Part shown: positions 796 to 14,135 of the stretch, one piece after another
How positions within the stretch are numbered: position 1 is the first letter of the stretch
Layout of the letters: each line of letters begins with the position of its first letter
Source: an uncultured Gemmatimonadales bacterium
Lineage (GTDB): Bacteria > Gemmatimonadota > Gemmatimonadetes > Gemmatimonadales > GWC2-71-9
Assembly: GCA_963771275.1 (NCBI GenBank)
Contig: CAVYSW010000002.1
Span: 1-14,135, forward strand
Length of the DNA: 14,135 bases
Reading direction: 5' to 3'
Notes under the pieces: generated by a model
Seen by the model: only the letters and a program-made list of their open reading frames with translations
Told to the model about the DNA's origin: nothing
The model's database searches: none
Made by a program: the position numbers and the translations under genes

Positions 796-935
796 AGCGC
801 TCGCGGTCTTCGGGAACGACCGCCGAGGGTACCACCTGCACGATCTGCGCCCCGGCGTCATCCGGCACCTCGATGGCCATGGCCACGAGGTCGCCTGGAA
901 ACAGCACCGCCCGGCGCGAGGCCCGGCGGGTGCCT

Positions 936-1934
936 TCACTGCTGTTGCAGGGTATAGCCGTACAAGGTGCCGGTTCCGGTGCCGGTGTCCGAAATCCAGA
1001 GGAGCCCGTTGGCAAACGACAGCGACCACGCGCTCTGCGCCACGACGGCCACCGGGAAGGTGAACGTGGTAATGGGCCCGCCCAGCATGTCATAGACGTA
1101 GACGGTCCCCAGCTCATCCATCGTGAACAGGTGGCTGCCGTCCGAGGTGATCACGTAGTTGCTCGGGAACACGCCGAACTGGAACCCGGTCAGCGTGCCC
1201 GTCACCGCCCCGCTGGAGAAGGCCAGCTGCGTGACGGTGCCATCGACGTGCTCCAGAATGGTCGCGCCGTCCGACGTCATGACCGGCTTGGCCTGACTCT
1301 GGGAGAAGATGCCCGTATGCAGGGGCGTCAGCGCGCCCGTCGCGGGGTCCACCTCATACCAGTCCAGCCCTAAGCTCTTCGCGTAGAACTTCCCGTCGGC
1401 CGGCCGATAGAACACCCCCCGCATGTCCAGGTTGACGGGTGTCGTCTGCGTGACGGTACCGCTGGTATTGACTTGCTGGATCTGGCCGGTCCCGGCATTG
1501 CCGCCATTGGAGAGGTAGTACGAAGTGCCGTCCCAGGTGACCGTCATCACGCGCAACGGAATCGAGAACGCAAAGGAGGTCGTCAGGACGGGGGCGATCG
1601 TCGCGGACTTGAAGTTGGTGGTGCCTGACACCCCATTCGCGGCGGTCGCCGTGACGGTCGTGGTGCCGTTCGCAACCGTCGTGAGGAGGCCGGCCGCGTC
1701 GATCGTGGCGACCCCTGCGTCGCTGCTGGCCCACGTGAACGTGGTGGCAAGCACGTGGCCGTCGGCCGACAGTCCCGACGCGGTGAAGGTAACCGTCCGG
1801 CCGCTGGCGATGAGGGTATCGACGTTGCTGGGCGTTACGACGACCGTCGTCACCACCTGAGGTTCGGTAGAACATCCTGCCACCAACGCCAGGATCGGAA
1901 CCGCACAGAGAGAGATCCGTAGTACGCGGGTCAC
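936..1934 (-). CDS. Lipoprotein with Ig-like (Big_2) domain and probable beta-propeller C-terminal domain
   Basis: GTG start at 1934 with AAGGAG RBS, in frame with ORF 936..2015. Signal peptide with lipobox VAGC. Big_2 pattern VVVTP...FTA...TWASSDAGVATIDAAGLLTTVANGTTTVTAT. Blade-like repeats WDGTSYYLS, SDGSHLFTM, FANGLLWISD. Confidence 0.8.
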   Translation of the reverse strand: MTRVLRISLCAVPILALVAGCSTEPQVVTTVVVTPSNVDTLIASGRTVTFTASGLSADGHVLATTFTWASSDAGVATIDAAGLLTTVANGTTTVTATAANGVSGTTNFKSATIAPVLTTSFAFSIPLRVMTVTWDGTSYYLSNGGNAGTGQIQQVNTSGTVTQTTPVNLDMRGVFYRPADGKFYAKSLGLDWYEVDPATGALTPLHTGIFSQSQAKPVMTSDGATILEHVDGTVTQLAFSSGAVTGTLTGFQFGVFPSNYVITSDGSHLFTMDELGTVYVYDMLGGPITTFTFPVAVVAQSAWSLSFANGLLWISDTGTGTGTLYGYTLQQQ

Positions 1935-2355
1935 GAGAGTCTCCTTTCGGCTTGGTGGTCGCTCCGGCACGTCGCCGCGACCACGTTGGGGGTCTTCGCG
2001 AGCAGCTTGCAACATGGTCCCGCCCGTGGCGCGGGGGGAACCGATTGGTGCCCAGGACTTGGGTCATGCTACCGCGGCTCGGCTCGCGCTGGAGCGTGTA
2101 CCGGCCGCCGAGTGGTTCATGGAGGGCGAGCCAACTGGTCAGGCGTTGGGCCCCCCGTGGTCCGCTCTCGCTGCTTCTACAATAGGGTCCGAAGCGGGAA
2201 TCGGCCAGAAGCCCCTGGAGATTCGTGAGATGAACGTGCTGGGCCGATCACTGAGAAACAACAACGGAACGACAATTGGGACGGCTGAACGAAGACAGGG
2301 CTGATGGAGCTAACCTCAAGCTCCGTCGGCCCCTAGCAGTCGGGACGGCGGATCG

Positions 2356-2688
2356 TCAGAGGCGCGCGATGGCATCGGTGAGGAGACCGATCGCCAACGT
2401 ATTGAGCGACACGCCCTCGACCGCGGCCCGTTCCGCCAGGCGGGCGTGCAGCGAGACAGGGACCCGGAGGCGGAACTGGCCACTGAAGCCGCGGTGGACC
2501 AGCGGATCCGGGAGCGCCTTGCCCTCGCTCGGCATGATGTCGACCGCTTCGGCGAGCACCGTCGTCAACTGGTCGAGCGCTTCCGTGTGCGTGTCACCCA
2601 GGCCTGAGAGGCCGGGGAACTCGGGGGAGACGGCCACGAACGCGTCGTCTTCCTCGCTCCACATCACACGGCGGCTGTACGCGCTCAC
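2356..2688 (-). CDS. hicB: HicB-family antitoxin (HicB N-terminal + RHH domain), orphaned
   Basis: Sequence YSRRVMWSEEDDAFVAVSPEFPGLSGLGDTHTEAL...FSGQFRLRVPVSLHARLAERAAVEGVSLN. The GTG start at 2688 overlaps (GTGA) the stop of the upstream toxin remnant. Confidence 0.85.
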   Translation of the reverse strand: MSAYSRRVMWSEEDDAFVAVSPEFPGLSGLGDTHTEALDQLTTVLAEAVDIMPSEGKALPDPLVHRGFSGQFRLRVPVSLHARLAERAAVEGVSLNTLAIGLLTDAIARL

Positions 2689-2790
2689 GGCGTCTGCTCG
2701 GGCGGCCGATCGTCGATCGCGGCGACGAGTTGCCGTACCTGATACGGTCTTGCCATGTCGTTCACGTTCTGGAGCGCTCCACACGAGGGG
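2685..2790 (-). pseudogene. C-terminal remnant of a HicA-like toxin
   Basis: 2774-2685 reads LQNVNDMARPYQVRQLVAAIDDRPPEQTP*, matching the NxQ..G.AKPYQV(R/K)Q C-terminus of HicA-like partners of this HicB type. The N-terminal part is missing. Not in the ORF track. Confidence 0.7.
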
Positions 2791-2797
2791 CGACCTC

Positions 2798-2830
2798 GAT
2801 GCCGCACTACGCGAGCGCGTGCGCGGCGTT
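2798..2830. terminator. GC-rich bulged hairpin downstream of the higBA-like operon
   Basis: GATGCCGC-AC-TACGCG-AG-CGCGTG-C-GCGGCGTT folds into a long stem. No clear U-tract. Confidence 0.3.
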
Positions 2831-2952
2831 AGCCTCACCGGCGTGCCGGATCGATGACAACACCGAATCGGCCGGTCCTCGTTCGGATCGCTGGGGCCTT
2901 GGAGGCCCCGCCATGGCGCGGCCAGGACCCTACCGCACCCAGCGCGCCACGA

Positions 2953-3279
2953 TCAATCCCCGCCGTCGCGACCGATCTCCTCGAACTGCGTGATTCGGAC
3001 CGCTCCATCCGGGAACCGGGCAACGATCTCCAGATCGCCGCCGAGGGCCTGGATGTAGGTGCGCAGCGAGCTGATGTACATGTCGGCTCGGCGCTCGAGC
3101 TTGGACACCAGGGCTTGCTGTGACCCGAGCCGCTTGGCCAGCGCTTCCTGGGTCATGCGTCGCGCCTGGCGCAACTCCTGGAGGGGCAGCTCGGCCAGGA
3201 GGGCCTGTGCTCGCTCGCGAACGCGCTTCTGGCGTTCGGGCGCCATCTTCGCTCGCAAGTCACGGAACTTCTTGGCCAT
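2953..3279 (-). CDS. higA: XRE-family HTH antitoxin (HigA-like)
   Basis: MAKKFRDLRAKM...LQELRQARRMTQEALAKRLGSQQALVSKLERRADMYISSLRTYIQALGGDLEIVARFPD. Overlaps the 3' end of the upstream toxin. Confidence 0.9.
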   Translation of the reverse strand: MAKKFRDLRAKMAPERQKRVRERAQALLAELPLQELRQARRMTQEALAKRLGSQQALVSKLERRADMYISSLRTYIQALGGDLEIVARFPDGAVRITQFEEIGRDGGD

Positions 3280-3649
3280 CACTTTCCCCCTCTTCTTCCG
3301 CTTCTCGCTTCAGCGCTTTCAGGTGCTCGTCCAGGAGCGCGTCAGCATTGGGCACTGCCGTCTCGTACCAACGGTCGTCGCCGGTCTTGTCACCGCCGAC
3401 CAGGAGCATTGCGACTCGGCGGGGATCGAACGCGTAGAGGACTCGGATCGGGCGGCCGGCATGCTGGACCCGCAGTTCGCGCATCTGGCCGTGGCGCGAC
3501 GCCCGAACGCCGGAGCTATATGGGTACCCGAGATGTGGACCGCGAGCCTCCAAGAGCGCGACCGCGACGGCAACCGACTCCTGCTCCTCCTCGGACAAGT
3601 CGTCCCACCAGCGCTCGAATTGGTCCGTATACTCGACGTCCCACGACAA
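3260..3649 (-). CDS. higB: RelE/ParE-superfamily toxin (HigB/Gp49-like)
   Basis: WDVEYTDQFERWW...GPHLGYPYSSGV..SRHGQMRELRVQHAGRPIRVLYAFDPRRVAMLLVGGDKTGDDRWY. Toxin-first order. Start is TTG at 3649 or 3655. Confidence 0.9.
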   Translation of the reverse strand: MSWDVEYTDQFERWWDDLSEEEQESVAVAVALLEARGPHLGYPYSSGVRASRHGQMRELRVQHAGRPIRVLYAFDPRRVAMLLVGGDKTGDDRWYETAVPNADALLDEHLKALKREAEEEGESDGQEVP

Positions 3650-3653
3650 GAAC

Positions 3654-3682
3654 AATATTCCTTTTGATGACTATTCTGTCAA
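3654..3682 (-). promoter_or_regulatory. Sigma70-type promoter of the higBA-like operon
   Basis: Minus strand TTGACA (3682-3677), 17-bp spacer, AATATT (3659-3654), in an AT-rich patch immediately before the start codon. Suggests a leaderless or near-leaderless mRNA. Confidence 0.7.
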
Positions 3683-3894
3683 GGGAATTCCTGACTGTTC
3701 TCCAACGTAGCAGAGACGACGGGGCGAACCGTCATCATTCTGTCCCGACGGGGGACAACGCCATCGCGGTGCTCAAGGGCCGGTTGGGGGAGCAGGCCCG
3801 CTGGCTACTCGTGGCCTGGGCGAGCCCGCTGATTCCGATCGTGGGGTTGTGGGTGCGGAGGTGAGGGCGGCGGCCTTCGTTGCGTGCCGAAAGC

Positions 3895-4355
3895 GACATG
3901 ACCTGCCGGGTATGGCGGGCGTCCAGCCGGCCGCCCGCCTTTAGCGCACGGCCACCCCGCTGCTTCCAGAAGAACGGCACCTTCTCCCGCACGCAGGTAT
4001 CCCTGCGCTGGAGCGCCCACGCTGGGTCCAGCGGCCGGGCATCGGGTCCACTCTCGCCCCAACGATGACCCAGTGGATCCCACGCAGGTTGAGTGACGCG
4101 CGCGGCTCGACCAACGGTCGCAGGACAGGGACCGGATGGCGGCGTTGAGGGATTTAGGGTGTCGCACGCGGTACGTCACGTCGTCATTGTCGACGGAAGT
4201 TTCGAGCCAGAGATGTCCCGGGATCCTCCGAAGACCGAGGAGGGGGCGGCCGAAACGAACTCGTCCGGGCCGCCGGCGTGGAAGAGGTCAGACATGGAGT
4301 TGACGAAGATCATTCGCGGCTCGGTTCACTTCAGGGGGTGATCCAGACGGTCCGA
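3895..4355 (-). pseudogene. DUF5131 / phage Gp37-Gp68 family pseudogene
   Basis: Motifs appear in order across shifting frames: [23 protein letters not shown], then [33 protein letters not shown], then [26 protein letters not shown]...CVREKVPFFWKQRGGRALKAGGRLD. In-frame stop, frameshifts, missing N-terminus. Confidence 0.85.
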
Positions 4356-4410
4356 TGTGATGCACCCAAAGCGCGCGGCCCGTTTGCGAATGCCTGCGCA
4401 CCTGGAGGTC

Positions 4411-5424
4411 CTAACGCAGTTCCGAGATCGCAGCGGCCAGCACCTCCGTCAGTCGCCTCTCGATGGTTCGCACCTGTTCCTTCGCTGAAAGCCGGAAGAA
4501 CGTTGAGAAGTCAGCCACCAGCGGGACGAATGCGCAGGCCCACCAGCGGTCACTACCCGGAGCCGCCAGTTCGCGCAGGGGCTCATGGCTCCGGAGTCGC
4601 TCGATGAGCGCGGGATCGACAAACGTGGCCCGAGAGAGCCATACCGCGGAGTCGCCGTGCAGATCCGAATAGGCAGGCCCGCCTATCTCCTGACCCTGGC
4701 TATCCTTGAGGGCCACGTACATCGCGTACCGGTCTGATCGGGCCGATGCGTGACGGAGATGGAGCGCCGCGCAGCACGCGTCCGCTGCCTCCTCGAACAT
4801 GAGTTGCAGGTGGTGACGCGCCAGCGTCCCTTCCAGCAGATGAGGGCCTACAGGCTCGAGGGTCATGCCGTGCTCCCTGAGGAATTGGAGTACTTCTCCG
4901 GTGATGAACCGCATCTCGGGCGACGAGCCGGAGATGCCGTTGAGTACGTCCGCGACGTCGTGCCAGCGCCGCTCCCTACACCACGTGGAGTGTGCTTTCC
5001 AGCGTTCAACGTCGATGGGATACTTCGAGATGAGCCCGACCGTGGCTCCAGTGTGTTGCGCGTACCTCAGGTAGCAGTCGATCTGGGTCTCTTCTTGTCC
5101 GTCGTCCTCCCGATGTCCGCGAATCCCAACAGCCGCCTCGATCTTCGATTCGATCAGCAGCTCGCGCTCCGGACCACCCTCGATCGGCACCTGCAGGACG
5201 AGATCGACATAGCCATCGGGTACGTCCATCTGCGTCTTGGCGGAGACTGTCCGGTCGGCGGCGACAGTTTCCACGAGAAAGAGGTTGGCGAAACCCCTTC
5301 CGAAATCCGGCCACTCATTGATGAGCCACGCCATCAATTCGGTCGTGAAGTTCTCAAGCGGCCGCACCGTAGCGGATGATGAATACGTGGACAGCGCGGT
5401 GAAGAGGCCCCTGGCCGGCGTCAT
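4411..5424 (-). CDS. PD-(D/E)XK nuclease superfamily protein
   Basis: ATG at 5424. ENFTTELMAWL, then YVDLVL...LLIESKIEA...QIDCYL (D...ExK plus QxxxY), then W.DV motif. The upstream part of ORF 4411..5838 is a shadow of the HNH remnant. Visibly less GC-rich than its neighbours. Confidence 0.8.
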   Translation of the reverse strand: MTPARGLFTALSTYSSSATVRPLENFTTELMAWLINEWPDFGRGFANLFLVETVAADRTVSAKTQMDVPDGYVDLVLQVPIEGGPERELLIESKIEAAVGIRGHREDDGQEETQIDCYLRYAQHTGATVGLISKYPIDVERWKAHSTWCRERRWHDVADVLNGISGSSPEMRFITGEVLQFLREHGMTLEPVGPHLLEGTLARHHLQLMFEEAADACCAALHLRHASARSDRYAMYVALKDSQGQEIGGPAYSDLHGDSAVWLSRATFVDPALIERLRSHEPLRELAAPGSDRWWACAFVPLVADFSTFFRLSAKEQVRTIERRLTEVLAAAISELR

Positions 5425-5609
5425 GAGTGGCGTCCTTGCCGCTCCCCTGGGCGAGGTCCCGAGTATATACCGAAAGCACATCACGGAGCACAGCCGTGCG
5501 CCAGGAACGGCCGATCCGCGGCAGACGGCCGTTCGCTGACCCCGAGCGGCGCGCCGCCGATCGTGGCCTGTGTCGCCTCGCGGAGACCGTGGGGCGACCT
5601 CGCCGCGCG

Positions 5610-5888
5610 CTACGCCGCCCGAAACCGCGCAAAGCGCTCGTCGAGGTAGTCCGCTTTCGGCCGCTGGGTAGGCACCCGTGGCAGCTGAATCCGGATGCCG
5701 TCCAGCTCCTGGAGGCCGTGGCGGAGCATGGGGCCGTCGTGTTCCTCCAGCACGTCTCGCCGCACGTGCACCCGATAGTCCGGCGCCACGCCCACGATGT
5801 TCACGTCGTAGGCGCCGTGGTGGATCTTGCAGAGGCACAAGCCGTTGGGCACTTCCGGGTGGCCGCGCTCGTCGCGGTCCCGCAGGAT
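5610..5888 (-). pseudogene. HNH endonuclease C-terminal fragment, copy 1
   Basis: ILRDRDERGHPEVPNGLCLCKIHHGAYDVNIVGV...LQELDGIRIQLPR...RP..DYLDERFARFRAA*. Begins right after the position of the first catalytic His (AAH), which is absent. Confidence 0.85.
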
Positions 5889-5906
5889 CACATTCTGTGA
5901 CCTTAA
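5884..5906. repeat. Imperfect palindromic site at the DUF2442/HNH junction (copy A)
   Basis: AGGATCACATTCTGTGACCTTAA. The right arm matches the perfect palindrome at 11543-11569. Confidence 0.75.
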
Positions 5907-5919
5907 GGCCCGCGTTGCG

Positions 5920-6186
5920 TCAGGCGGGGGCGACGTCTCGTTTGGACTGGCTGCGGACCGCGTCGTGCAGGAACTCCGGGGCGATGTCGGCGCCGTTGGG
6001 CCACACCAGCGTGTGGCACTCGGGGTCTACCCTGAACTGTCGGAAGTAGATCGGGTTGTGGAGCGGCTCGAATACCGGGCCGCGCAGCACGGGGCGAAGG
6101 TTCACCTCGCCGGCCGAGCCGTCACGGCAGCGGACCCAGACCGTGAAGTCTCGCAGGTATCTCGCTTCGAGTACGTCGTAGTCCAT
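5920..6186 (-). CDS. DUF2442 family protein (putative antitoxin)
   Basis: MDYDVLEARYLRDFTVWVRCRDGSAGEVNL...GPVFEPL...F..F.VD....TLVWPNGADIAPEFL. ATG 5 nt after the DUF4160 stop. Confidence 0.88.
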   Translation of the reverse strand: MDYDVLEARYLRDFTVWVRCRDGSAGEVNLRPVLRGPVFEPLHNPIYFRQFRVDPECHTLVWPNGADIAPEFLHDAVRSQSKRDVAPA

Positions 6187-6191
6187 ACCCG

Positions 6192-6449
6192 TCACTCCAG
6201 CGGGGTGATCGCGACGAGCGGCTTGCCCTGCCGCGCGCGCTCCCAATTGGCGAGCAGCTCCGCGCGGTGGAGGGTCGCCCATTCCAGCACGTGGTGCAGC
6301 GCCGTTCGTGGGAAGATACCGTGCACCGTGCTGGTTCGCACCTCAACCGAGATCTTGCAGCCGCCACACACCGCGTGGAAGTGGGGCACGCCATGGTCAG
6401 CGTAGTACATGTAGACGGCGATGCCGAAGAACCGGCAGATCTCGGGCAT
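6192..6449 (-). CDS. DUF4160 family protein (putative toxin)
   Basis: MPEICRFFGIAVYMYYADHGVPHFHA...VLEWATLHRAELLANWERARQGKPLVAITPLE. Typical partner of DUF2442. Confidence 0.88.
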   Translation of the reverse strand: MPEICRFFGIAVYMYYADHGVPHFHAVCGGCKISVEVRTSTVHGIFPRTALHHVLEWATLHRAELLANWERARQGKPLVAITPLE

Positions 6450-6465
6450 GCCGGCGAGTGTGCGG

Positions 6466-6557
6466 CCTCGCCAGCGCATTACGTCATCGGATTCATGCGT
6501 CAGAAGGGCGAAATGGCGCGTCACCCGTCGTAACAGGAGCTCTCTGGAGTGTCGAGT
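6466..6557 (-). repeat. 92-bp conserved leader upstream of DUF4160, copy A
   Basis: Aligns without gaps to 12508-12599, with 12 mismatches by hand count. Confidence 0.85.
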
Positions 6558-6664
6558 AGCTCAATGGGATGCTCACTGCGCTAGAACTACCGGCCGGACG
6601 TCATGGGACGTCCGCGCTCGCAGGCAGTCTTCGCGCAAAATCCTCCGCACCGTCGGCGCGAAGC

Positions 6665-6709
6665 CTCGACCGGCACGCCCAGCGCATCACCCACCGCGAG
6701 TCCGAGGAT
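6665..6709 (-). pseudogene. Short ADP-ribosylglycohydrolase (DraG/ARH) N-terminal remnant
   Basis: ILGLAVGDALGVPVE matches the family's N-terminal GxAxGDALG.PxE motif. The rest of the gene is absent. Confidence 0.6.
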
Positions 6710-6841
6710 GAACAACGGCGGCGCAGAAGGGGAGAGGTGACGGGGGAGGCGCTTCGTCACCCGCGGCGTGGGAAGGATGTCGCGGGATCGCGCTGACGAC
6801 GCCACGCTGCGGCCGTCCCGGGCATGAGAAACGAGGTCGAC

Positions 6842-6870
6842 TTGCCCACACAAGTTATAGCTTGTATCAT
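6842..6870 (+). promoter_or_regulatory. hicAB promoter with inverted-repeat operator
   Basis: TTGCCC (6842-6847), 17 bp, TATCAT (6865-6870). The inverted repeat ACAAG-TTATAG-CTTGT (6850-6865) fills the spacer. Confidence 0.7.
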
Positions 6871-6888
6871 CCAATTGGGGGTCGCCCG

Positions 6889-7080
6889 GTGGATTCCCGG
6901 GACGTGATCCGCGCCCTGAAAGACGACGGCTGGGTCCTCGTGCGCACCCGGGGGTCGCATCACCACTTCGCGCACTCGCTCAAGCCCGGGATCGTGACGG
7001 TGCCGCACCCCAGGAAGGACCTCGCGTTGGGTCTACTGCGGAGCATCGAGCGGCAGGCCGGGATCAGGCTCGAGCGGTGA
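6889..7080 (+). CDS. hicA: HicA-family mRNA interferase toxin
   Basis: GTG start. MDSRDVIRALKDDGWVLVRTRGSHHHFAH..KPGIVTVPHPRKDLALGLLRSIERQAG contains the GSH motif. Confidence 0.92.
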   Translation: MDSRDVIRALKDDGWVLVRTRGSHHHFAHSLKPGIVTVPHPRKDLALGLLRSIERQAGIRLER

Positions 7081-7088
7081 GGGGGACG

Positions 7089-7556
7089 ATGCGGTATCAG
7101 GCGCTGGTGACCAAGGAGGGGCGCGCAACCGTCGCGCGCTTCCCCGACTGCCCGGGCTGCCAGACGCAGGCGGGGCCGGGCGAGGAGGTCCTCGACCAGG
7201 CGCGCGACGCGCTCGAAGGCTGGCTCGAGGCGCATCTCGCGCTCGGCAGGGTCCCGCCTCTGCCGGCCGGCACGCGGCGGCGGGCCTCGGCCGGGCGCAA
7301 GGTGATCGACGTCGCGGTGGATCCCACGCTCGCGGTGCGCATGCTCCTGCGCGTCGCCCGTCACGAGGCCGGGCTCACGCAGGCAGAGCTGGCGCGGAAG
7401 ATCGGCGTGAGCCAGCAGCAGATTGCCGCCCTGGAGTCGCCCGACTCCAATCTCACACTCGGCACCCTGGTGCGGGTGGCTGCGGTGCTCGACCGCGAGG
7501 TCGAGATCCGCCTCAGCGTGACTGGCGCCCGAAGCGCCGCGCCTTCGCGGGCCTGA
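7089..7556 (+). CDS. hicB: HicB-family antitoxin with C-terminal XRE HTH
   Basis: HicB domain YQALV...ARFPDCPGCQTQ....E....ARDALEGWL, then HTH ARHEAGLTQAELARKIGVSQQQIAALE. GAGGGGG RBS. Confidence 0.88.
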   Translation: MRYQALVTKEGRATVARFPDCPGCQTQAGPGEEVLDQARDALEGWLEAHLALGRVPPLPAGTRRRASAGRKVIDVAVDPTLAVRMLLRVARHEAGLTQAELARKIGVSQQQIAALESPDSNLTLGTLVRVAAVLDREVEIRLSVTGARSAAPSRA

Positions 7557-7673
7557 CCCGAAGCTCCGCGACGCCCGTCCTTACGGGCAGTCAGCCCCGC
7601 CGAGTGGCCGCCTTGGCGGCATTCTAGAGAGAACGCCGCCAACACGCAGGGCTGTCCCAACCTCATCGGGGCG

Positions 7674-7823
7674 CTACGCCGCCCGGAACCGCGAAAACCG
7701 CCCATCGAGGTAGTCCGCTCTCGGCCGCTGGGCGGACACCGGCGGCACGCGAATCCGGATGCCGTCCAGCTCCTGGAGGCCGTGGCGGAGCCTGGGGCCG
7801 CGCTCGTCGCGGTCCCGCAGGAT
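7674..7823 (-). pseudogene. HNH endonuclease C-terminal fragment, copy 2 (internal deletion)
   Basis: ILRDRDERG|PRLRHGLQELDGIRIRVPPVSAQRPRADYLDGRFSRFRAA*. Lacks 129 bp relative to copy 1. Confidence 0.85.
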
Positions 7824-7840
7824 CACGTTCTGTGACCTTA
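7819..7840. repeat. Imperfect palindromic site at the DUF2442/HNH junction (copy B)
   Basis: AGGATCACGTTCTGTGACCTTA, in the same context as 5884-5906. Confidence 0.75.
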
Positions 7841-7854
7841 GAGCCCGCGTTGCG

Positions 7855-8082
7855 TCAGGCGGGGGCGACGTCTCGTCTATGCTGGCTGCGGACCGCGTCG
7901 TGCAGGAACTCCGGGGCGATGTCCGCACCGTTGGGCCAGACCAGGGTCTGCCCCACCGGGTCCAGAGCGAACTGCTGGAAGAAGGCAGCATCGTGCAGCG
8001 GCTCGAAAACGGGGCCGTGCAGCACGGGCCGGAGATCGACTTCGCCGGCCGAGCCGTCGCGGCACCGCACCCAGACGGTGTA
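7855..8082 (-). pseudogene. 5'-truncated DUF2442 gene
   Basis: YTVWVRCRDGSAGEVDLRPVLHGPVFEPL...TLVWPNGADIAPEFLHDAVRSQHRRDVAPA*. About 13 N-terminal residues and the DUF4160 partner are missing. Confidence 0.8.
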
Positions 8083-8113
8083 GTGGAGCTGAGCCCACTC
8101 CCGCCTACGGCCG

Positions 8114-8608
8114 CTACAGCCTCGTGATCGTGTAGGTTCCGAATCCGTCGACAGCCGTGCCCGGCGTGAGGTAGCCGAACCACAGGCCGGCTTCGATCGA
8201 GTCCGGGACCTGGCCTGAATTGAACCCCCCGTTGAACCCGTAGGCGCCGCCGCTCACGAAGACAATCTTCGTCAGCGTCCCGTCCTCGAAGTAGGCCGTG
8301 CCGAGGTCGCTCCCGCTGGACGCTCCTCGCGGGAAATCGAACGAGAAGTTGTCGAGCGCGGCGTCGATCGTCTCGGAGCCAGTTCCCGTGAGGCTCCCGA
8401 CATCAATCTGGAACGTGGCGGTGAAGGTCTGGCCCGCGTAGGTCCCGCCGTCGTTCAGGCAGGTCACGGTGACCTCGAATTGGACGATCTCGAACGTAGG
8501 CGCATCATCGGAGCAGGCACCGACCGCGACGACGAGTAGGCTCAGCCCGAGAATCGAGCCGAGGGTGGAAGAGCGTCGGGCGCCGAACCTGGTGTTGAGA
8601 CTCTTCAT
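8114..8608 (-). CDS. Hypothetical lipoprotein
   Basis: Basic N-terminus, hydrophobic stretch, lipobox VGAC, then a beta-rich acidic body. AAGGGA RBS. Confidence 0.75.
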   Translation of the reverse strand: MKSLNTRFGARRSSTLGSILGLSLLVVAVGACSDDAPTFEIVQFEVTVTCLNDGGTYAGQTFTATFQIDVGSLTGTGSETIDAALDNFSFDFPRGASSGSDLGTAYFEDGTLTKIVFVSGGAYGFNGGFNSGQVPDSIEAGLWFGYLTPGTAVDGFGTYTITRL

Positions 8609-8771
8609 GAGTCGATCCCTTCTCGTAAGCTGGAGTATGCTCCTCGCCTTCGTGGTAGTGCTTGCCCTCGGCGGGCGCGCCCTGGCCTCGGCAGCTTAGC
8701 CCGACCCGACGGACCGGAGTGACAGCGACAGAGGAGCCCCGAGGGCGCTAAGGCCTGCCCTGGCCGCTACG

Positions 8772-11432
8772 TCAGCGGACCGGCTCCGGGTTCGCGTACG
8801 TCACCAGCAGCGCCTGGAACCGCGGATCGCTGCGGATCGGGTCCCAGCGCGGATCGAGGCGGAGGGTGTGGGCGCCGAGCTCGGAGGGTCCCGCCAGCAG
8901 CCGCTCGATCTCGACGAGTGCCGCATCCGCGTCGCCGATCCTCGCCAGAATCCGCGCCCGATCGTCGGCAACTGCCGGCCCGGCAAGAGCGTCCCCGCGG
9001 TAGATCGTCGATTGCCTCAGCCAGCGGGCCTCACGTTCAGCCTCCCGCTGCCGTCCCAGGCCGGCGAGGGCCAGGCCCCGGGCGGCGTGGACGCGCCAAT
9101 CGTCGGGCAGCACCACCGCCACCGAGTCGAGCAGCACTCGGGCCGAATCGAATGCCGCCCGCGCCGCCACGTGATCCCCACGTAGCTGGTGGGCCCACGC
9201 CGCATACAGCGCCGTCGGGACATAGAAGTTCATACCGTCAAAGGCCCGCTGCGGTGTCCGACGGAGCAGCGCGAGCAGGCTGTCCGGCTTTCGCTCCCAA
9301 TACAGCTTGAGGGCCTGCCAGGCGCTGGCGCTCCCCAACGCACCGAGCTCGGCCTCCGGCGGATAGCGATCCAGCGCTGCCCCGAGCGAGTCCAGCCGTC
9401 CCTGCCAGACGACCCAGGTCCACCCGCGGTCCACGTCGATCGCGGCCACGTCCGGCGCCAGCGCCAGCGCTCGGCTGTACCACTCCACGGCCTCCCGATA
9501 CCGGCGCAGGAAATTCAGGGTGCCACCCAGATTGTAGAGGGCATCGGCGTTGCGCGGGTCGAGCGCCACGACCCGGTCGAACGCGGCGACGGCCTCGTCC
9601 CAGTTCCCGAGCCGCCGCTGCGTGTACCCGATCCGCTCCCACACCTCGGCGTCATTCGGCAGCCCCGCGAGCGCGATCCGAAACTCCCTCAGCGCCGCCT
9701 GCCAGTCCTGGCGTCCGACGTGCTGCACCAACCCCATGGCGAGGTGCGCCTGCGGCAAGTCGGGCGCAAGCCGCAGCGCTGACTCTGCCTCTTCCCGTTG
9801 GCGCGCCAACCGTGCCGGGGACGGATCATACCGGTACAACGACATCCGGCCATGCACCTGCGACAACGCCGCGTGGGCGAGGGCAAACGTCGAGTCCAGG
9901 GCCAGCGCCCGCCCATACAAGCCCTGCGCGATCTCCCAGTTGTCACGCAGGTTGCCCGGCCGGCGGTAGTACTCCAGCCCCTGCAAGTAGAGCCGGTACG
10001 CCTCGGCGCTCGCCGTGGGGGCCGCGGCGAGCGCCGTCCGTTCCGTCCCGCCGAGCGTCGCCCCCACCGCCGCCACGACCCGCTGCGCGATCTCGCTCTG
10101 GACCGCGAACGCATCGTCCAGCGTCCGGTCGTAGCGCTCCGCCCAGAGGTGCTGGTCCGTCGCGGCATCGATCAGCTGCACGTTCACCCGCAGGCGCGCT
10201 CCCAGCACCTGCACGCTGCCCTCGATGATCGTGCCGACACTCAGCTCGTCCGCGATCTGCCGGAGCGGCTTCGTCCGCGTCGCGTACTCCATCACGGACG
10301 TCCGACTGATCGGCTTCAGCGCCGCGACCTTCGTGAGCTGCGTGATCAGCTCGTCGTGCAACCCGCCCGCGAAGTAGGCGTTGGGACCCTCGCCACTCAG
10401 GTTCTCGAACGGCAGCACCGCGATCGCGGTGCGGGGGTGGCGTGACCCTGTCGCGCCCGGTCGCAGCCAGCTGCCCACCGCCACGGCGCCGGCGATCACC
10501 ACGACCGCCGCTCCGCCGAGCACCGCGATGCGCTTCCACGATCGCTTGGCGGACATGACCGCACCCGATGCGGGCGGAAACACCGCGCCGGCCGTCGAGG
10601 CCCGTGACCCGAGCGCCTCGGCGAACAGCGCCACCGGGTTGAACCGGTCGGCCGGTGTCTTTGCGAGTGACCGCGTCAGCGCCGCCGCTACCCACCCCGG
10701 CACCGCCGGCCGCATCACCGTGATGCTCGGCGGCTCCGCCGTGAGATGCTGATGGATCAGGCTCTCGACCGTCGGCCCCGTGAACGGCGGCTGCCCCGCG
10801 AGCATCTCGTACAGGACGCAGCCGAGGGAGTAGAGATCAGACCGACCGTCCAGGTCATGGCTCCCCGCTGCCTGCTCGGGAGACATGTACGCCGGCGTGC
10901 CCAGCGCGATCCCCGTCCCGGTGAGCTTCTCCCCACCCGCCTGGTCGATCGCCCGCGCGATCCCGAAGTCGGCCACCACCGCGTGGCCGCTCTCCAGCAG
11001 GATGTTCTCGGGCTTGACGTCGCGGTGGATCACCCCGTGGCTGTGGGCATAGGAGAGCGCGTCGGCCACCTCGCGGCTGATCTGGAGCGCGTCGTCCAGC
11101 GGCAGCTGCTTCTCGCGGGTGAGGCGGTCGCGGAGGGACTCGCCCTCCACGTAGGGCATCACGTAGTAGAGGAACCCGTCGGCGTTCCCGGAATCGTGCA
11201 GCGGCAAGATGTGGGGGTGCGTGAGCTGGGCGGTGGTCTTGACCTCGCGCAGGAACCGGTCCGCGCCCAGGACGGCCGCGAGCTCGGGCTTCAGCACCTT
11301 GAGGGCAACGGGCCGCTCGTGCTTGAGGTCGGTGGCGAGATAGACCGTGGCCATGCCCCCGCGGCCCAGCTCGCGCTGGAGCGCGTAGCGATCCACCAAG
11401 GCTGCCTTGAGGCGATCCACTTGGTCGGGCAT
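8772..11432 (-). CDS. Hanks-type Ser/Thr protein kinase with TM helix, TolB-like domain and TPR repeats
   Basis: Kinase motifs GRGGMATV, VALK, HRDVKPEN, DFG, GTPAYMSPEQ, DLYSLG. TM IAVLGGAAVVVIAGAVAVG. IAVLPFENL domain and TPR-like repeats. Ends with LDPRWDPIRSDPRFQAL. Confidence 0.95.
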   Translation of the reverse strand: MPDQVDRLKAALVDRYALQRELGRGGMATVYLATDLKHERPVALKVLKPELAAVLGADRFLREVKTTAQLTHPHILPLHDSGNADGFLYYVMPYVEGESLRDRLTREKQLPLDDALQISREVADALSYAHSHGVIHRDVKPENILLESGHAVVADFGIARAIDQAGGEKLTGTGIALGTPAYMSPEQAAGSHDLDGRSDLYSLGCVLYEMLAGQPPFTGPTVESLIHQHLTAEPPSITVMRPAVPGWVAAALTRSLAKTPADRFNPVALFAEALGSRASTAGAVFPPASGAVMSAKRSWKRIAVLGGAAVVVIAGAVAVGSWLRPGATGSRHPRTAIAVLPFENLSGEGPNAYFAGGLHDELITQLTKVAALKPISRTSVMEYATRTKPLRQIADELSVGTIIEGSVQVLGARLRVNVQLIDAATDQHLWAERYDRTLDDAFAVQSEIAQRVVAAVGATLGGTERTALAAAPTASAEAYRLYLQGLEYYRRPGNLRDNWEIAQGLYGRALALDSTFALAHAALSQVHGRMSLYRYDPSPARLARQREEAESALRLAPDLPQAHLAMGLVQHVGRQDWQAALREFRIALAGLPNDAEVWERIGYTQRRLGNWDEAVAAFDRVVALDPRNADALYNLGGTLNFLRRYREAVEWYSRALALAPDVAAIDVDRGWTWVVWQGRLDSLGAALDRYPPEAELGALGSASAWQALKLYWERKPDSLLALLRRTPQRAFDGMNFYVPTALYAAWAHQLRGDHVAARAAFDSARVLLDSVAVVLPDDWRVHAARGLALAGLGRQREAEREARWLRQSTIYRGDALAGPAVADDRARILARIGDADAALVEIERLLAGPSELGAHTLRLDPRWDPIRSDPRFQALLVTYANPEPVR

Positions 11433-11531
11433 CCGCTCCCGTTGGTCTCCCTCCCGCGGGTACTACGATACGGCGCGCCGGGCAAGCGGGCCAGAAGGGG
11501 GCTGAGGGACCAGAGACAGCACCGCGCAGTC

Positions 11532-11682
11532 CGCGACCCTTTTTTAAGGTCACACTCTGTGACCTTAAAGCCTCGGTTTCCTCCGCCAGGGTGGTGTCGA
11601 GCAGCACCTTCTGGCCGCGCAGCAACACGATGGCGCTCGTGATGCGCTCGACTGGTATCAGGCTCGCCGGAGGTCGGGGCAT
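11532..11682 (-). pseudogene. ORF6N-domain gene remnant (internal deletion, 3' truncated)
   Basis: MPRPPASLIPVERITSAIVLLRGQKVLLDTTLA|EETEALRSQSVTLKKGRG. The start and RSQxVTLK segments are present. The LYGV...RN..RFP.DFMFQL core and the YAFTEQG C-terminus are missing. Confidence 0.8.
11543..11569. repeat. Perfect palindrome inside the ORF6N remnant
   Basis: TTTAAGGTCACA-CTC-TGTGACCTTAAA, with 12-bp perfect arms. AT-rich in a GC-rich background. Confidence 0.9.
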
Positions 11683-11863
11683 GCACCCACGTTGCGTCGG
11701 CGCTGTTCGCGGCCGACATCATTCCTCGTCAGGGTGGACCATTGGGCCGCGGCTCCCGGCCGGGCGGTCGTACTGGAGCTTCCGACCGAGAAAGCGACGC
11801 GCGGCACGCATCGAGGATAGTGCGCCGGCAGGGGCTCGCCCTGATGCGGCGTCATCGGGGGGG

Positions 11864-12036
11864 CTACGCCGCCCGGAACCGCGCGAACCGCTCGTCGAGG
11901 TAGTCCGCTCTCGGCCGCTGGGCGGATACACCACGATGTTCACGTCGCAGGCGCCGTGGTGGATCTTGCAGAGGCAGAGGCTGTTGACGCTTTCGGGGCG
12001 ACCGCGCTGGTCGCGATCGGGGAGGAGGTGCGCTGC
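11864..12036 (-). pseudogene. HNH endonuclease C-terminal fragment, copy 3 (internal deletion)
   Basis: AAHLLPDRDQRGRPESVNSLCLCKIHHGACDVNIV is joined out of frame near 11925-11931 to SAQRPRADYLDERFARFRAA*. Confidence 0.85.
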
Positions 12037-12055
12037 CAAGGCCGGCGCTGCCGCT

Positions 12056-12301
12056 TCAGGCTGCTACCCGCACCGCCTCGTAAAGCGTCTCGGGAGCGAT
12101 GTCCGCCCCGTTGGGCCAGCAGAGGGTCCGGAACTCCGGGTGGATGGTGAACGTCCTGAAGAAGGCCGGGTCGCGGAGCGGTTCGAAGATCGGCCCCTGG
12201 AGCTCCGGGCCGAGATCTACCTCGCCGGCGGTCCCGTCGCGGAAGCGGAGCCAGACGGTATGGCCGCTGATGTAGCGAGCTTCGACGACACTGTAGTACA
12301 T
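12056..12301 (-). CDS. DUF2442 family protein (putative antitoxin), orphaned
   Basis: MYYSVVEARYISGHTVWLRFRDGTAGEVDL...GPIFEPLRDPAFFRTF...TLCWPNGADIAPETLY. Full length. Confidence 0.88.
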   Translation of the reverse strand: MYYSVVEARYISGHTVWLRFRDGTAGEVDLGPELQGPIFEPLRDPAFFRTFTIHPEFRTLCWPNGADIAPETLYEAVRVAA

Positions 12302-12305
12302 CGCA

Positions 12306-12495
12306 TCACTCCAGGGGCTCGATCCGTTCCAGTGCCGTTCCCTGACGAGCCCGATCCCAGTTCGCCAGCAACCGGGCTGCTTGAAGGGCCGTCCATGTCA
12401 GGACGGACCGGAGCACTCGTGGGGGTAAGCTACCATGAACCCGCCGCGACCTCTACCACAGCCTCGTAGTCGCCGTAGACGGCATGAATGTGCGC
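12306..12495 (-). pseudogene. DUF4160 pseudogene
   Basis: AHIHAVYGDYEAVVEVA, then a frameshift, then RVHGSLPPRVLRSVLTWTALQAARLLANWDRARQGTALERIEPLE*. The N-terminal ~20 codons are deleted. Confidence 0.8.
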
Positions 12496-12507
12496 AACCC
12501 CGTGCTC

Positions 12508-12599
12508 CCTCGCCAGCGGAGTGCGTCATCAGATTCATGCGTCGGAGGGGCGAAATGGCGCGTCGCCCGTCGCGACAGGAGCCGTTTGGAGTGTCGAGT
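12508..12599 (-). repeat. 92-bp conserved leader upstream of DUF4160, copy B
   Basis: Direct repeat of 6466-6557. Confidence 0.85.
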
Positions 12600-12636
12600 C
12601 GCGGCCGTTGGCCGTTGGCGGCAGCGGGACTCTCTC

Positions 12637-13107
12637 CTAGCGGCGCTGCCTTCCCCTGTCCGTGTCCAGCTCCGGATGCGCCCTCGCGAGCCAGCTCCGA
12701 ACCGCTCCCGCGAAGCGAGCGGCTTCCTTCCGAAGGTCGGCAGCCTCGGCATCCGAGACGTCGCCGGCACTGTCGTACTCCAACTGAGCGCGCTTTCGCC
12801 GGCAGTCGTCATAGTACCTGGCTCTGTCGGACACCTCGGGGATCCCGAGCCGGTGCAGGGCCTCGAACGTCATCTCGTGGTGCCGGGCGTGCTTCGCGCG
12901 CACGCCGTGGGCCCGGAGGACGACCGTGGCCGCGCACCGCACGGCGTCATACGCGAGCGTGAAGATCGAGTCCGGGTGCTTCAGGTTCCCCCGCAGCTCG
13001 TCGAGGCGGCGCTCGACGATGCCGAGCAGGCCACGGATCTCCTCGACGTCCGTCGGCTGGGGTTCCAGCCACCCGGCGTCAACCAGTGGCTTCAGCGCTT
13101 CGGGCAT
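12637..13107 (-). CDS. HEPN-like domain protein (partner of MNT)
   Basis: Helical pattern FTLAYDAVRCAATVVLRAHGVR...HHEMTFEAL...DDCRRKRAQLEYD. Overlaps the 3' end of the upstream nucleotidyltransferase. Confidence 0.72.
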   Translation of the reverse strand: MPEALKPLVDAGWLEPQPTDVEEIRGLLGIVERRLDELRGNLKHPDSIFTLAYDAVRCAATVVLRAHGVRAKHARHHEMTFEALHRLGIPEVSDRARYYDDCRRKRAQLEYDSAGDVSDAEAADLRKEAARFAGAVRSWLARAHPELDTDRGRQRR

Positions 13108-13711
13108 TGCCGATGAGGTCCAATCTCGGGCCCGCGAGGACCCGCGTGACGAAGGAGTGCCCCTTGCGCTGCTTCTCGCGGAACTCCGCGGGCGTGATGA
13201 GATAGGGGTTGACCGCGCGGCCGAGCAGGTCGGCGGCCGGTCTCAGGAGGTCGGCAAGCTCCGGGGACCCGATCGCCCCGACGACGAACAGATCGACGTC
13301 GCTGGCGGCCGTCTCCTGGCCGCTCGCCATCGAGCCGTAGAGAAAGGCCCAGCGGATGTCGGCCTGACGGTCCGCCAGCGCGGTCCGCAGCGCATCCGCG
13401 ATGCCTCCCAGCTTGAGGACGAGCGCGCGCAGCTCGGGGAGCACAGAGGCATCGCGATCCAGCTCGCAGTAGAGGCGGCGGCCCTCGGTGCGGCGACGGA
13501 CCAGCCCCAGGCGCTCCAGGGTTACCAGCTCGCGGCTGACAGCCGTCGGCGGCAGGTCCAACCGCCGCGCCAGGTTGCGGACGTAGTAGCGGTCCGCGGC
13601 ACCGAGCAGCAGCCCGCTGAGGATCTTCGCCCGGGCCTCGGAGCCGAACAGGCGGCCTAGGGTGGACTTGGACGGCCGCCGGCGCCCGGAACCTCGAGGC
13701 CGAACTGCCAC
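13079..13711 (-). CDS. wHTH + minimal nucleotidyltransferase (MNT) antitoxin-like protein
   Basis: N-terminal LFGSEARAKIL...YYVRNLARRL...VSRELVTLERLGLV (wHTH). AFLYGSMASGQETAASDVDLFVVG is an exact GSX10DXD motif. GTG start with GGAGGG RBS. Confidence 0.88.
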   Translation of the reverse strand: MAVRPRGSGRRRPSKSTLGRLFGSEARAKILSGLLLGAADRYYVRNLARRLDLPPTAVSRELVTLERLGLVRRRTEGRRLYCELDRDASVLPELRALVLKLGGIADALRTALADRQADIRWAFLYGSMASGQETAASDVDLFVVGAIGSPELADLLRPAADLLGRAVNPYLITPAEFREKQRKGHSFVTRVLAGPRLDLIGNARSAEATG

Positions 13712-13721
13712 AGTCCCTCCA

Positions 13722-13768
13722 TGTACACAATATGTGCACTATAGTACACATATTGTGGACAAGTGCAA
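13722..13768 (-). promoter_or_regulatory. MNT-HEPN promoter overlapped by a 40-bp palindromic operator
   Basis: Minus strand TTGCAC (13768-13763), 16 bp, TACTAT (13746-13741). Palindrome 13722-13761 has 18/20 matched arms. Confidence 0.75.
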
Positions 13769-13896
13769 CCCCTCGCGCGGATTCAGGCCGGATCCGGCGC
13801 TCAAGCCGAGAGTAGCCCGAACGGGTCCGGCTGCGTCATCGAAGCGTCGCCACTCGGCGCATTGTCGCGCTGGCCAGGCGTCGAGGAGGGAGACGG

Positions 13897-14135
13897 CTAC
13901 GCCGCCCGGAACCGCGCGAACCGCTCGTCGAGGTAGTCTGCTTTCGGCCGCTGGGCGGCGTACGCGCGGCAGCTGAATCCGGATGCCGTCCAGCTCCTGG
14001 AGCCCGTGGCGGAGCATGGGGCCGTCGTGCTCCTCCAGCACGTCCCGGCGCACGTGCACCCGGTAGTCCGGATCCACGCCCACGATGTTCACGTCGTAGG
14101 CGCCGTGGTGGATCTTGCAGAGGCACAGGCCGTTG
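13897..14135 (-). pseudogene. HNH endonuclease C-terminal region, copy 4 (frameshifted, runs off window)
   Basis: NGLCLCKIHHGAYDVNIVGVDPDYRVHVRRDVLEEHDGPMLRHGLQELDGIRIQLPRV, then a +1 shift near 13958 before AQRPKADYLDERFARFRAA*. The 5' extent is unknown. Confidence 0.8.

Follow-up and report, generated by a model that had tools for sequence, protein, structure and literature searches.

Truncated 3' ends of an HNH restriction-type gene punctuate a defense and toxin-antitoxin array in an uncultured Gemmatimonadales bacterium

How does the end of one gene come to stand four times in a row, each time followed by different genes? The question is raised by contig CAVYSW010000002.1 (contig C2) of GenBank assembly GCA_963771275.1, from an uncultured Gemmatimonadales bacterium of soil. 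The window analyzed here is this entire contig, 14,135 nt at 67.7% G+C; the assembly (genome G000) comprises 3.86 Mb in 11 contigs and is rated 96.7% complete. Repeat finding, blastn and a four-way alignment bear out what a first-pass annotation, made from the sequence alone, had reported: four co-oriented copies, all on the minus strand, of the 3' end of one HNH_2 restriction-type gene. Their stop codons lie at 13897-13899 (copy A), 11864-11866 (copy B), 7674-7676 (copy C) and 5610-5612 (copy D), all four fall in a single repeat family (D2), and the same letters are used below for the units that contain them. The reading we favor, at a probability of about 0.5, is that the array grew by accretion through recombination within a conserved HNH gene end, akin to insertion with long target duplication, and that the stranded ends then decayed.

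The HNH parts of the four copies are 84-98% identical to one another. By blastn, copy A matches D at 92.5% over 240 nt, C matches D at 88.5% over 130 nt, and B matches D in two segments (82% over 96 nt and 93% over 60 nt). The border at the stop codon is sharp in all four: identity of 85-94% in the final 68 nt falls to 22-56% in the 40 nt past the TAG, as the first-pass annotation had said in placing the end of similarity near that codon. No further copy of this HNH gene turns up by blastn or tblastn anywhere else in the 3.86-Mb assembly.

The copies are in different states of preservation. Copy A (13897-14135) runs off the end of the contig. An extra base at 13959-13962 interrupts its frame; this base is missing in the contigs of all four sequencing runs examined, and without it the frame reaches RFARFRAA*. 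Since this frameshift is probably an assembly error, copy A may be the tail of a whole gene. Copy B (11864-12036), starting at "LAAH", is thrown out of frame by an internal deletion of 115 nt, and copy C (7674-7830) has an in-frame internal deletion of 129 nt and starts as D does. Copy D (5610-5891) is an open frame of 93 codons that begins "ILRDRDERG", directly past the first His of the HNH motif; it matches HNH_2 (PF13391) at profile positions 40-60 only, and in NCBIfam the C-terminal part of NF045808. A complete HNH motif with its first His ("AAH") is found in none of the four: D and C start past it, B has AAH in a shifted frame, and A is cut. (In the sequence, the 93-aa frame of copy D has a GTG start, preceded 9 nt upstream by "AAGG", and one short database relative, P0002, begins "DRDERG" after unrelated sequence. 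The idea that short HNH proteins form a natural family was dropped: most of the 104 short database relatives come from short contigs or have internal-Met starts.)

What kind of gene supplied these ends can be seen in relatives, where full-length homologues of about 305-310 aa, with HNH_2 at the C-terminus, exist as single genes. Their C-terminal half resembles the NCBIfam phosphorothioate-DNA restriction endonuclease (NF045808), below its cut-off. The gene is patchily distributed, occurring in 53 of 401 genomes of the class, and most loci other than those described below hold one whole gene. The sequence directly past its stop codon differs by genome (AbiEii; HsdM-Fic-HsdR; a second HNH_2 gene; Smr with Uma2), and ORF6N genes or remnants (PADLOC PDC-S05) adjoin the HNH gene at six loci; for these reasons the HNH gene is placed at the head of a variable defense island in this lineage. 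Across 126 distinct HNH 3' ends the last 30 or so coding nucleotides are conserved, and nothing is conserved past the stop codon. In one genome (G048; locus L026, 10188-12597) an IS3-family element with orfA and an rve-type orfB splits the HNH gene at about residues 149-168, an insertion that is unrelated to the array.

Arrangements parallel to that in the window occur elsewhere. Two genomes of the same order, G026 and G032, each have two HNH copies, with 5.7 kb and 22.5 kb of defense genes between them, respectively. The pair in G026 (L016 9090-9533 and 14790-15746) is 96% identical, and its second, downstream copy is 5'-truncated at about residue 91, carries two internal deletions, loses similarity at the stop codon and is followed there by an MNT-HEPN pair. 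The pair in G032 (L017 4869-5786 and L018 7426-8344) consists of two whole copies, 96.8% identical over 910 nt, with similarity essentially confined to the reading frame. (A PUA-like protein of about 400 aa adjoins the HNH copies in both genomes; it was considered as a fixed partner of the HNH gene and rejected, as it was seen at five loci only and is not found in the genome studied here.) In a locus from the Kryptoniota (L182), an Eco57I-type methylase and a 292-aa open reading frame (ORF) lie between 205-nt direct repeats of the HNH tail (1743-1947 and 5534-5738, 92.7% identical) that end one base past the stop codon, and BglII-like and DpnI-like genes follow. Read boldly, the Gemmatimonadota and Kryptoniota cases would make the HNH gene end a cross-phylum hot spot for insertion with long duplication. 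No synteny was found between the cargo in the window and the HNH neighborhoods of relatives.

What stands upstream of the tails is also repeated, in part. The first-pass annotation had described a recurring scaffold of leader, DUF4160, DUF2442 and HNH 3' end. Such a scaffold does punctuate different cargo, but its composition varies: DUF2442 precedes B, C and D, whereas DUF4160 and a leader of about 100 nt precede B and D only, and DUF4160 has decayed in B. All of these parts lie on the minus strand. Unit D has an adjacent pair by Pfam, made up of a DhiT-like DUF4160 toxin gene (6192-6449, E 3e-14) and a DhiA-like DUF2442 antitoxin gene (5920-6186, E 9e-15), with the matches to NCBIfam toxin_DhiT (65 bits, cut-off 100) and antitoxin_DhiA both below cut-off. 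Unit B retains a DhiT-like DUF4160 remnant whose N-terminal part is deleted (12309-12500; 40% to the D copy by tblastn) and a DhiA-like DUF2442 gene (12056-12301; Pfam E 1e-17, 62% amino acid identity to D). Unit C starts inside its DUF2442 gene, which is recognized by Pfam and 5'-truncated (7855-8082), and is without DUF4160 and leader. Units B and D have an identical left border, at the leaders.

Elsewhere the parts of the scaffold occur separately. A DUF2442-HNH tail junction was found in none of 80 metagenome loci, 63 species-genome loci and the same-genus contigs fetched, and a second instance of the scaffold in none of about 400 genomes and 143 related loci. Both parts have their nearest relative in a metagenome locus (L036), where the DUF pair (74% nucleotide identity) lies about 950 nt upstream of a whole HNH gene (81%) in divergent orientation. 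Comparison with same-genus genomes was dominated by paralogues of the kinase gene in the array; otherwise it returned scattered DUF4160 and DUF2442 copies and one HNH fragment, in other contexts. A fifth DUF4160-DUF2442 pair, without leader and HNH tail, is present in this genome (contig C3, 1449559-1450056; 68% nucleotide identity to unit D), and at least three more pairs are present on separate contigs of the same-genus genome G003.

The two leaders (12502-12602 in unit B, 6460-6560 in unit D; 85-86% identical) are non-coding, as comparison of the two copies reveals no conserved reading frame. A predicted hairpin is common to both copies, with one pair changed on both sides (two sequences only), and the fold z-scores are unremarkable (-1.8 and -0.6). 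With these weak scores, no conserved frame, no Rfam match and no homologue in 400 other genomes of the class, the leader was rejected as a known RNA.

The junctions between DUF2442 and the HNH tails bear on how the units were assembled. The common start point just past DUF2442 that had been proposed for the tails stands for D and C, which both start at "IL" and have the same junction (91% identical), but not for B, which also follows DUF2442 and starts 4-5 codons earlier at a different junction (58-61% against D and C). B and D both hold a "GGCCTT" stretch right before the junction. Between the DUF2442 stop codon and the HNH piece lie 10-30 nt, partly filler. In unit D the filler (5884-5904, plus strand) is about 22 nt of a palindrome from ORF6N genes, and the filler of unit C (7819-7839, plus strand) is equal to it (repeat family D7); the filler pattern has three matches in the window against none expected in 200 shuffles. 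Its source is a 27-nt palindrome (12-nt arms, 3-nt spacer) in the ORF6N codons LRSQxV(T/I)LK of this lineage, and the HNH side of the junction has about 5 nt in common with the second arm. Judged by their sequence, the D and C junctions suggest illegitimate joining of the microhomology type, with filler DNA, rather than a site-specific crossover. With internal deletions in B and C and filler DNA at the D and C junctions, the fragments show ordinary decay.

Of the 11 ORF6N copies or remnants that were checked, 7 carry the palindrome (window 11543-11569; L018 7058-7088 and 11465-11495; L036 7227-7257; L021 5906-5936; L016 16004-16034; contig C3 of this genome, 1290744-1290774). Its arms covary, and it is AT-rich, with rare codons, in genomes of 70% G+C. 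Operator, RNA hairpin and cleavage site are all possible roles for it within a defense-candidate gene (PADLOC PDC-S05). As a crossover site it was set aside: the 3-nt spacer and intragenic position would better suit an operator or RNA hairpin, and it explains the filler and not the array.

Could one unit simply have been amplified in place? A unit of cargo, leader, DUF4160, DUF2442 and HNH tail would have been multiplied in tandem by unequal crossing-over, its cargo later replaced, and its tails and leaders kept alike by gene conversion. The junction that D and C have in common, filler included, fits this explanation, as do the "GGCCTT" and almost equal HNH start of B and D and the same left border of their units, and amplification of units between long direct repeats is mentioned in PMC2853133. 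Furthermore, a tree that unites the three DUF2442 copies in one clade is not rejected by an AU test over 81 columns (p = 0.27). The pattern of divergence points the other way. Identity is 86% for the leader (D against B), 62% for DUF4160, 67-77% for DUF2442, 91% for the junction (D against C) and 84-98% for the HNH tail, which makes the leader and the HNH tail, the two parts that touch cargo, the best conserved. In DUF2442, B and D match at the third position of only 27 of the 50 codons for conserved residues, which is near saturation at synonymous sites; for C and D the count is 44 of 60. The DUF2442 protein of B ranks 124th among 125 homologues of that of D compared; the nearest relatives of the C copy are outside proteins (88%, 86%, 85% and 84%) ahead of D (80%), the nearest relative of the B copy is also an outside protein (77%), and a likelihood tree places the three copies apart. 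Neutral gene fragments are expected to diverge no more slowly than working genes; the opposite is seen, and the units are mosaics and not simple duplicates made in place. In addition, repeat finding detects nothing in common among the cargo blocks.

The HNH tails carry a further record, in their codon positions. Differences between A and D by codon position number 2/1/14, that is, 14 synonymous against 2 non-synonymous codons, a skew with a binomial estimate of about 5e-5 under an even spread (the numbers being small). The two whole copies of G032 differ at 4/5/25. With differences almost all at third positions, A and D, and likewise the G032 pair, diverged as working coding alleles before being joined, and this mark of purifying selection argues against amplification of neutral tails. 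In copies C and B the differences from the others are spread equally across codon positions, and these two copies have drifted as dead fragments. On balance we regard tandem amplification as unlikely.

Accretion within the HNH gene end would proceed as follows. An HNH_2 restriction-type gene of about 305 aa stands at the head of a variable defense and toxin-antitoxin island in this order of Gemmatimonadota. DNA would have been added several times by recombination inside its conserved last 70-280 nt or so, either by Campbell-type insertion of a circle carrying an HNH tail or by insertion with long target duplication. Each event would place new cargo behind a working HNH end and leave a 5'-truncated tail further downstream, and the stranded tails would then decay. 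The DUF4160-DUF2442 toxin-antitoxin pairs would have come in at the distal ends of the inserted pieces and may contribute to their retention; they would not be recombination machinery. What the data show directly is the repeats with their borders, mosaic divergence, selection signature and decay, the lack of recombinases and the parallels in other genomes; direction, number and mechanism of the insertions are what we infer.

Several results weigh against accretion. The scheme needs the 5' part of the HNH gene upstream of copy A, and the N-terminal part of the family is absent from the whole 96.7%-complete assembly; a full-length HNH gene, which the first-pass annotation had hoped to find by extending the contig, is likewise not on it (an attempt at extension found no 25-mer common to contig ends in the assembly). 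Copy D, possibly the oldest scar under an accretion model, is the best-preserved copy, and its lineage-specific changes look mostly synonymous (4 of 5 by hand count). The AU result given above leaves a single DUF2442 clade standing. No syntenic empty site or partial array was found in six same-genus genomes, which are only about 75% identical and fragmented. Nor do the contigs of the four runs contain an excision or deletion joint between HNH copies, such as the first-pass annotation had suggested looking for, a weak negative in that contigs drop rare variants. Finally, in each of B, C and D the DUF2442 gene stands within 10-30 nt of an almost identical HNH position, which independent insertions would not give unless the inserted pieces were related or recombined in the tail. 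This position could mean that the pieces were related and recombined in the tail, that one unit was amplified and remodelled, or that a recombinase from elsewhere was at work.

That last possibility leads to tandem site-specific integration of small, integrase-less elements, each bringing a substitute HNH 3' end, through a recombinase encoded elsewhere. Co-oriented copies, a sharp right border at the stop codon, a nearly equal left border in B, C and D and a substitute end that differs mainly at synonymous sites are all what such elements would leave. The genome encodes five tyrosine recombinases (PF00589), all on contigs other than C2, and an Acidobacteriota locus (L177, 9830-12700) has, behind an HNH C-terminal fragment, a PF01844-like HNH gene, an excisionase-like HTH_17 gene and a split tyrosine integrase. 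L177 is, however, the only one of about 200 loci seen that has an integrase beside an HNH fragment. The first-pass annotation's proposed search for a recombinase near the array comes back empty: a Pfam scan of 21 window proteins, together with the PF00589 and PF00239 searches, finds no mobility gene in or beside the insert, no tyrosine recombinase lies within the HNH loci of G032, G026, G018, G038 and G040, and no serine recombinase (PF00239) was detected in the five genomes searched. There is no one crossover point for all copies, B starting at "LAAH" and D and C at "IL", with fragments in other genomes starting anywhere from residue ~91 to ~243; such variable left borders speak against a fixed att-like point. 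The 10-30 nt with filler between DUF2442 and the HNH piece, and the lack of a conserved site past the stop codon among the 3' ends aligned, tell against it as well, and we hold this explanation to be somewhat less likely than amplification. Of the two origins that the first-pass annotation had offered, att-like integration at the gene's 3' end and homologous recombination between scaffolds, what survives is the involvement of the HNH 3' end in recombination, which is the most likely course of events; a fixed att-like point is not supported.

The conservation of the leader and HNH tail where they touch cargo also invites readings in which these sequences have a role in exchange. They might serve as homology arms, or as sites for a recombinase acting in trans, in cassette exchange between strains, with the DUF4160-DUF2442 pairs holding the units in place. 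We consider this improbable; if true, it would describe a gene-capture array made of gene fragments and needing no integron integrase. More improbable again is the dedicated platform that the first-pass annotation had proposed, in which the leader and HNH tail scaffold is the recombination site of an integron-like gene-capture system. Cargo blocks 1 and 3 are indeed cassette-like (1.1-1.3 kb, one toxin-antitoxin pair each), and the best-conserved parts and the leader hairpin kept in both copies, with its single two-sided pair change (in two sequences only), would suit such a system. But the scaffold is found in this one genome only, no recombinase is linked to it, its tails are decaying (deletions, frameshift), conservation between A and D is at the level of protein coding and not of a site, and the leader folds are unremarkable. 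A coarse inverted-repeat scan of eight border regions, made without an attC model, found no attC-like inverted repeats common to cargo borders. The proposal of an integron-like platform is thus not supported.

An assembly artefact (collapsed repeats or chimeric joins in a metagenome-assembled genome), to which a 14-kb contig ending inside a repeat, HNH copy A, and the one error-like base in that copy might point, is extremely improbable, as the copies differ by 2-16% from one another and so are not collapsed duplicates, and contigs from four runs of three studies span the junction of every HNH copy, and the border of either leader, with 0-4 differences. Bridging contigs cover, for example, 6715-8259, 12000-13652, 12012-12640, 5764-5982 and 6464-6749, as well as 5478-5727, 11446-11900, 7719-8000 and 13651-14101, and the contigs of the four runs cover 21-28 of 30 bins of the window. 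The run that holds the window best may be the window's own source sample, and the same local structure is found in two other studies. With contigs from four runs of three studies bridging most junctions, local mis-assembly, which the first-pass annotation had named as a danger, is unlikely; this support is for local junctions and does not extend to the long-range order of the blocks. Two joints in the run contigs (929 to 8772, and 6804 back to 2949) were rejected, their short sides being 29 and 39 nt, and are probably paralogues or another strain. In run X6, one contig follows the window as far as 14051 and is unrelated to it for at least 255 nt thereafter; the strain in that run may have a different 5' border for copy A.

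The cargo itself is varied, and the labels given to it by the first-pass annotation hold for MNT-HEPN, HicA-HicB and the kinase, as they do for DUF4160 and DUF2442. Behind copy A, cargo block 1 consists of an MNT-type nucleotidyltransferase with an N-terminal helix-turn-helix (HTH) domain (13079-13711, minus strand; Pfam Polbeta/NTP_transf_2 and HTH, PADLOC PDC-M05A at E 1e-50) and its HEPN partner (12637-13107, minus strand; Pfam HEPN_SAV_6107, PADLOC PDC-M05B at E 4e-25). An AT-rich palindrome of 20+20 nt, 90% complementary and without spacer (13722-13761), lies just upstream of the HTH-bearing MNT gene and is probably its operator. Block 2, behind copy B, begins with an ORF6N remnant (11520-11682, minus strand) that holds a perfect 12+3+12 palindrome at 11543-11569; the ORF6N label is weakly supported (Pfam E 0.042; 67% over 42 aa by tblastn to an ORF6N-like stretch in L021). 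It continues with a Ser/Thr protein kinase with TPR repeats (8772-11432, minus strand; Pfam Pkinase E 2e-49 and TPR; many paralogues in the genome) and an ORF for a putative lipoprotein without Pfam or NCBIfam match (8114-8608, minus strand). In block 3, behind copy C, hicA (6862-7080; HicA_toxin E 1e-22) and a hicB gene with HTH (7077-7556; HTH_3 and HicB-like) lie on the opposite, plus strand (6862-7556). The first gene past unit D (4411-5400, minus strand, 329 aa) has no match in Pfam, NCBIfam or PADLOC, and the PD-(D/E)XK nuclease label that had been proposed for it (as 4414-5400) thus gets no family match. Near the other end of the contig, the minus strand matches the nhaA-I (Na+) riboswitch family at 548-606 (48.4 bits, gathering score 37); the match is located upstream of a membrane ORF of 114 aa (162-506) without Pfam family.

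The entry of genes into mosaic defense islands without visible mobility genes is poorly understood. Together with G026, G032 and L182, this locus presents a conserved restriction-gene 3' end as a candidate for a repeated entry point, one that would leave a datable trail of truncated tails. If the accretion reading is true, co-oriented gene tails ending at a stop codon offer a simple signature by which entry points can be found; if it is not, the locus is an ordinary decaying island.

How does the array compare with known systems? Integrons, and integrase-less attC clusters, are co-oriented arrays in which a recurring sequence stands between small cargo blocks, toxin-antitoxin pairs in many cases. 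The window resembles them in this layout, but there is no IntI or attI on the contig, which is short enough that an integrase gene might lie beyond its ends, and a coarse scan reveals no attC-like imperfect palindromes at the borders. What recurs here is a stretch of about 1 kb made up of genes and gene fragments, and one cargo block has the opposite orientation. Integrative elements such as e14 and phage 21, which sit in icd, exchange the 3' end of a protein gene for a substitute end, and integrase-less cis-mobilizable elements accrete in tandem beside integrative conjugative elements. The displaced 3' fragment downstream, the mostly synonymous substitute end and the tandem line-up are all similar here. 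Unlike those elements, the array has no integrase in cis, left borders that are not fixed, filler DNA at a junction, and units that as elements would span only 1-4 kb.

The paired genes of the scaffold have a described counterpart in DhiTA of Dickeya dadantii, a DUF4160/DUF2442 toxin-antitoxin system according to PMC8198452 and PMC12065111. The same two Pfam domains occur here in the same order, in overlapping or abutting genes, with a match to NCBIfam toxin_DhiT. Scores, on the other hand, are below the equivalog cut-offs (65 of 100 bits and 21 of 200 bits), and the DUF2442 protein is 81-88 aa long compared with the 160-position DhiA model. By this comparison the pairs in the window are predicted DhiT/DhiA-type toxin-antitoxin modules.

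The closest likeness is to the process that Furuta, Abe and Kobayashi (2010, PMC2853133) describe for restriction-modification and type IV restriction genes, insertion with long target duplication. In that paper, the inserts lie between direct repeats of 46 to about 420 bp and carry no mobility genes; overlap of a repeat with the 3' end of a resident gene is possible, as is amplification via the repeats. The array differs in several respects from the cases given there: its inserts hold MNT-HEPN, HicAB, a kinase and DUF4160-DUF2442 in place of R and M genes (a methylase occurs only in L182), four repeats stand in a row, the repeat is the tail of the restriction gene itself, three of the four repeats (B, C and D) follow DUF2442, with DUF4160 in B and D only, and no empty site was found among the six same-genus genomes. 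In common with those cases, defense genes without a mobility gene lie between direct repeats longer than 30 bp (70-280 nt here, at 84-98% identity), and L182, with its methylase between 205-nt repeats, fits the pattern directly. If accretion at the HNH gene end is true, insertion with long target duplication would widen from restriction-modification units to toxin-antitoxin cargo and multi-copy arrays.

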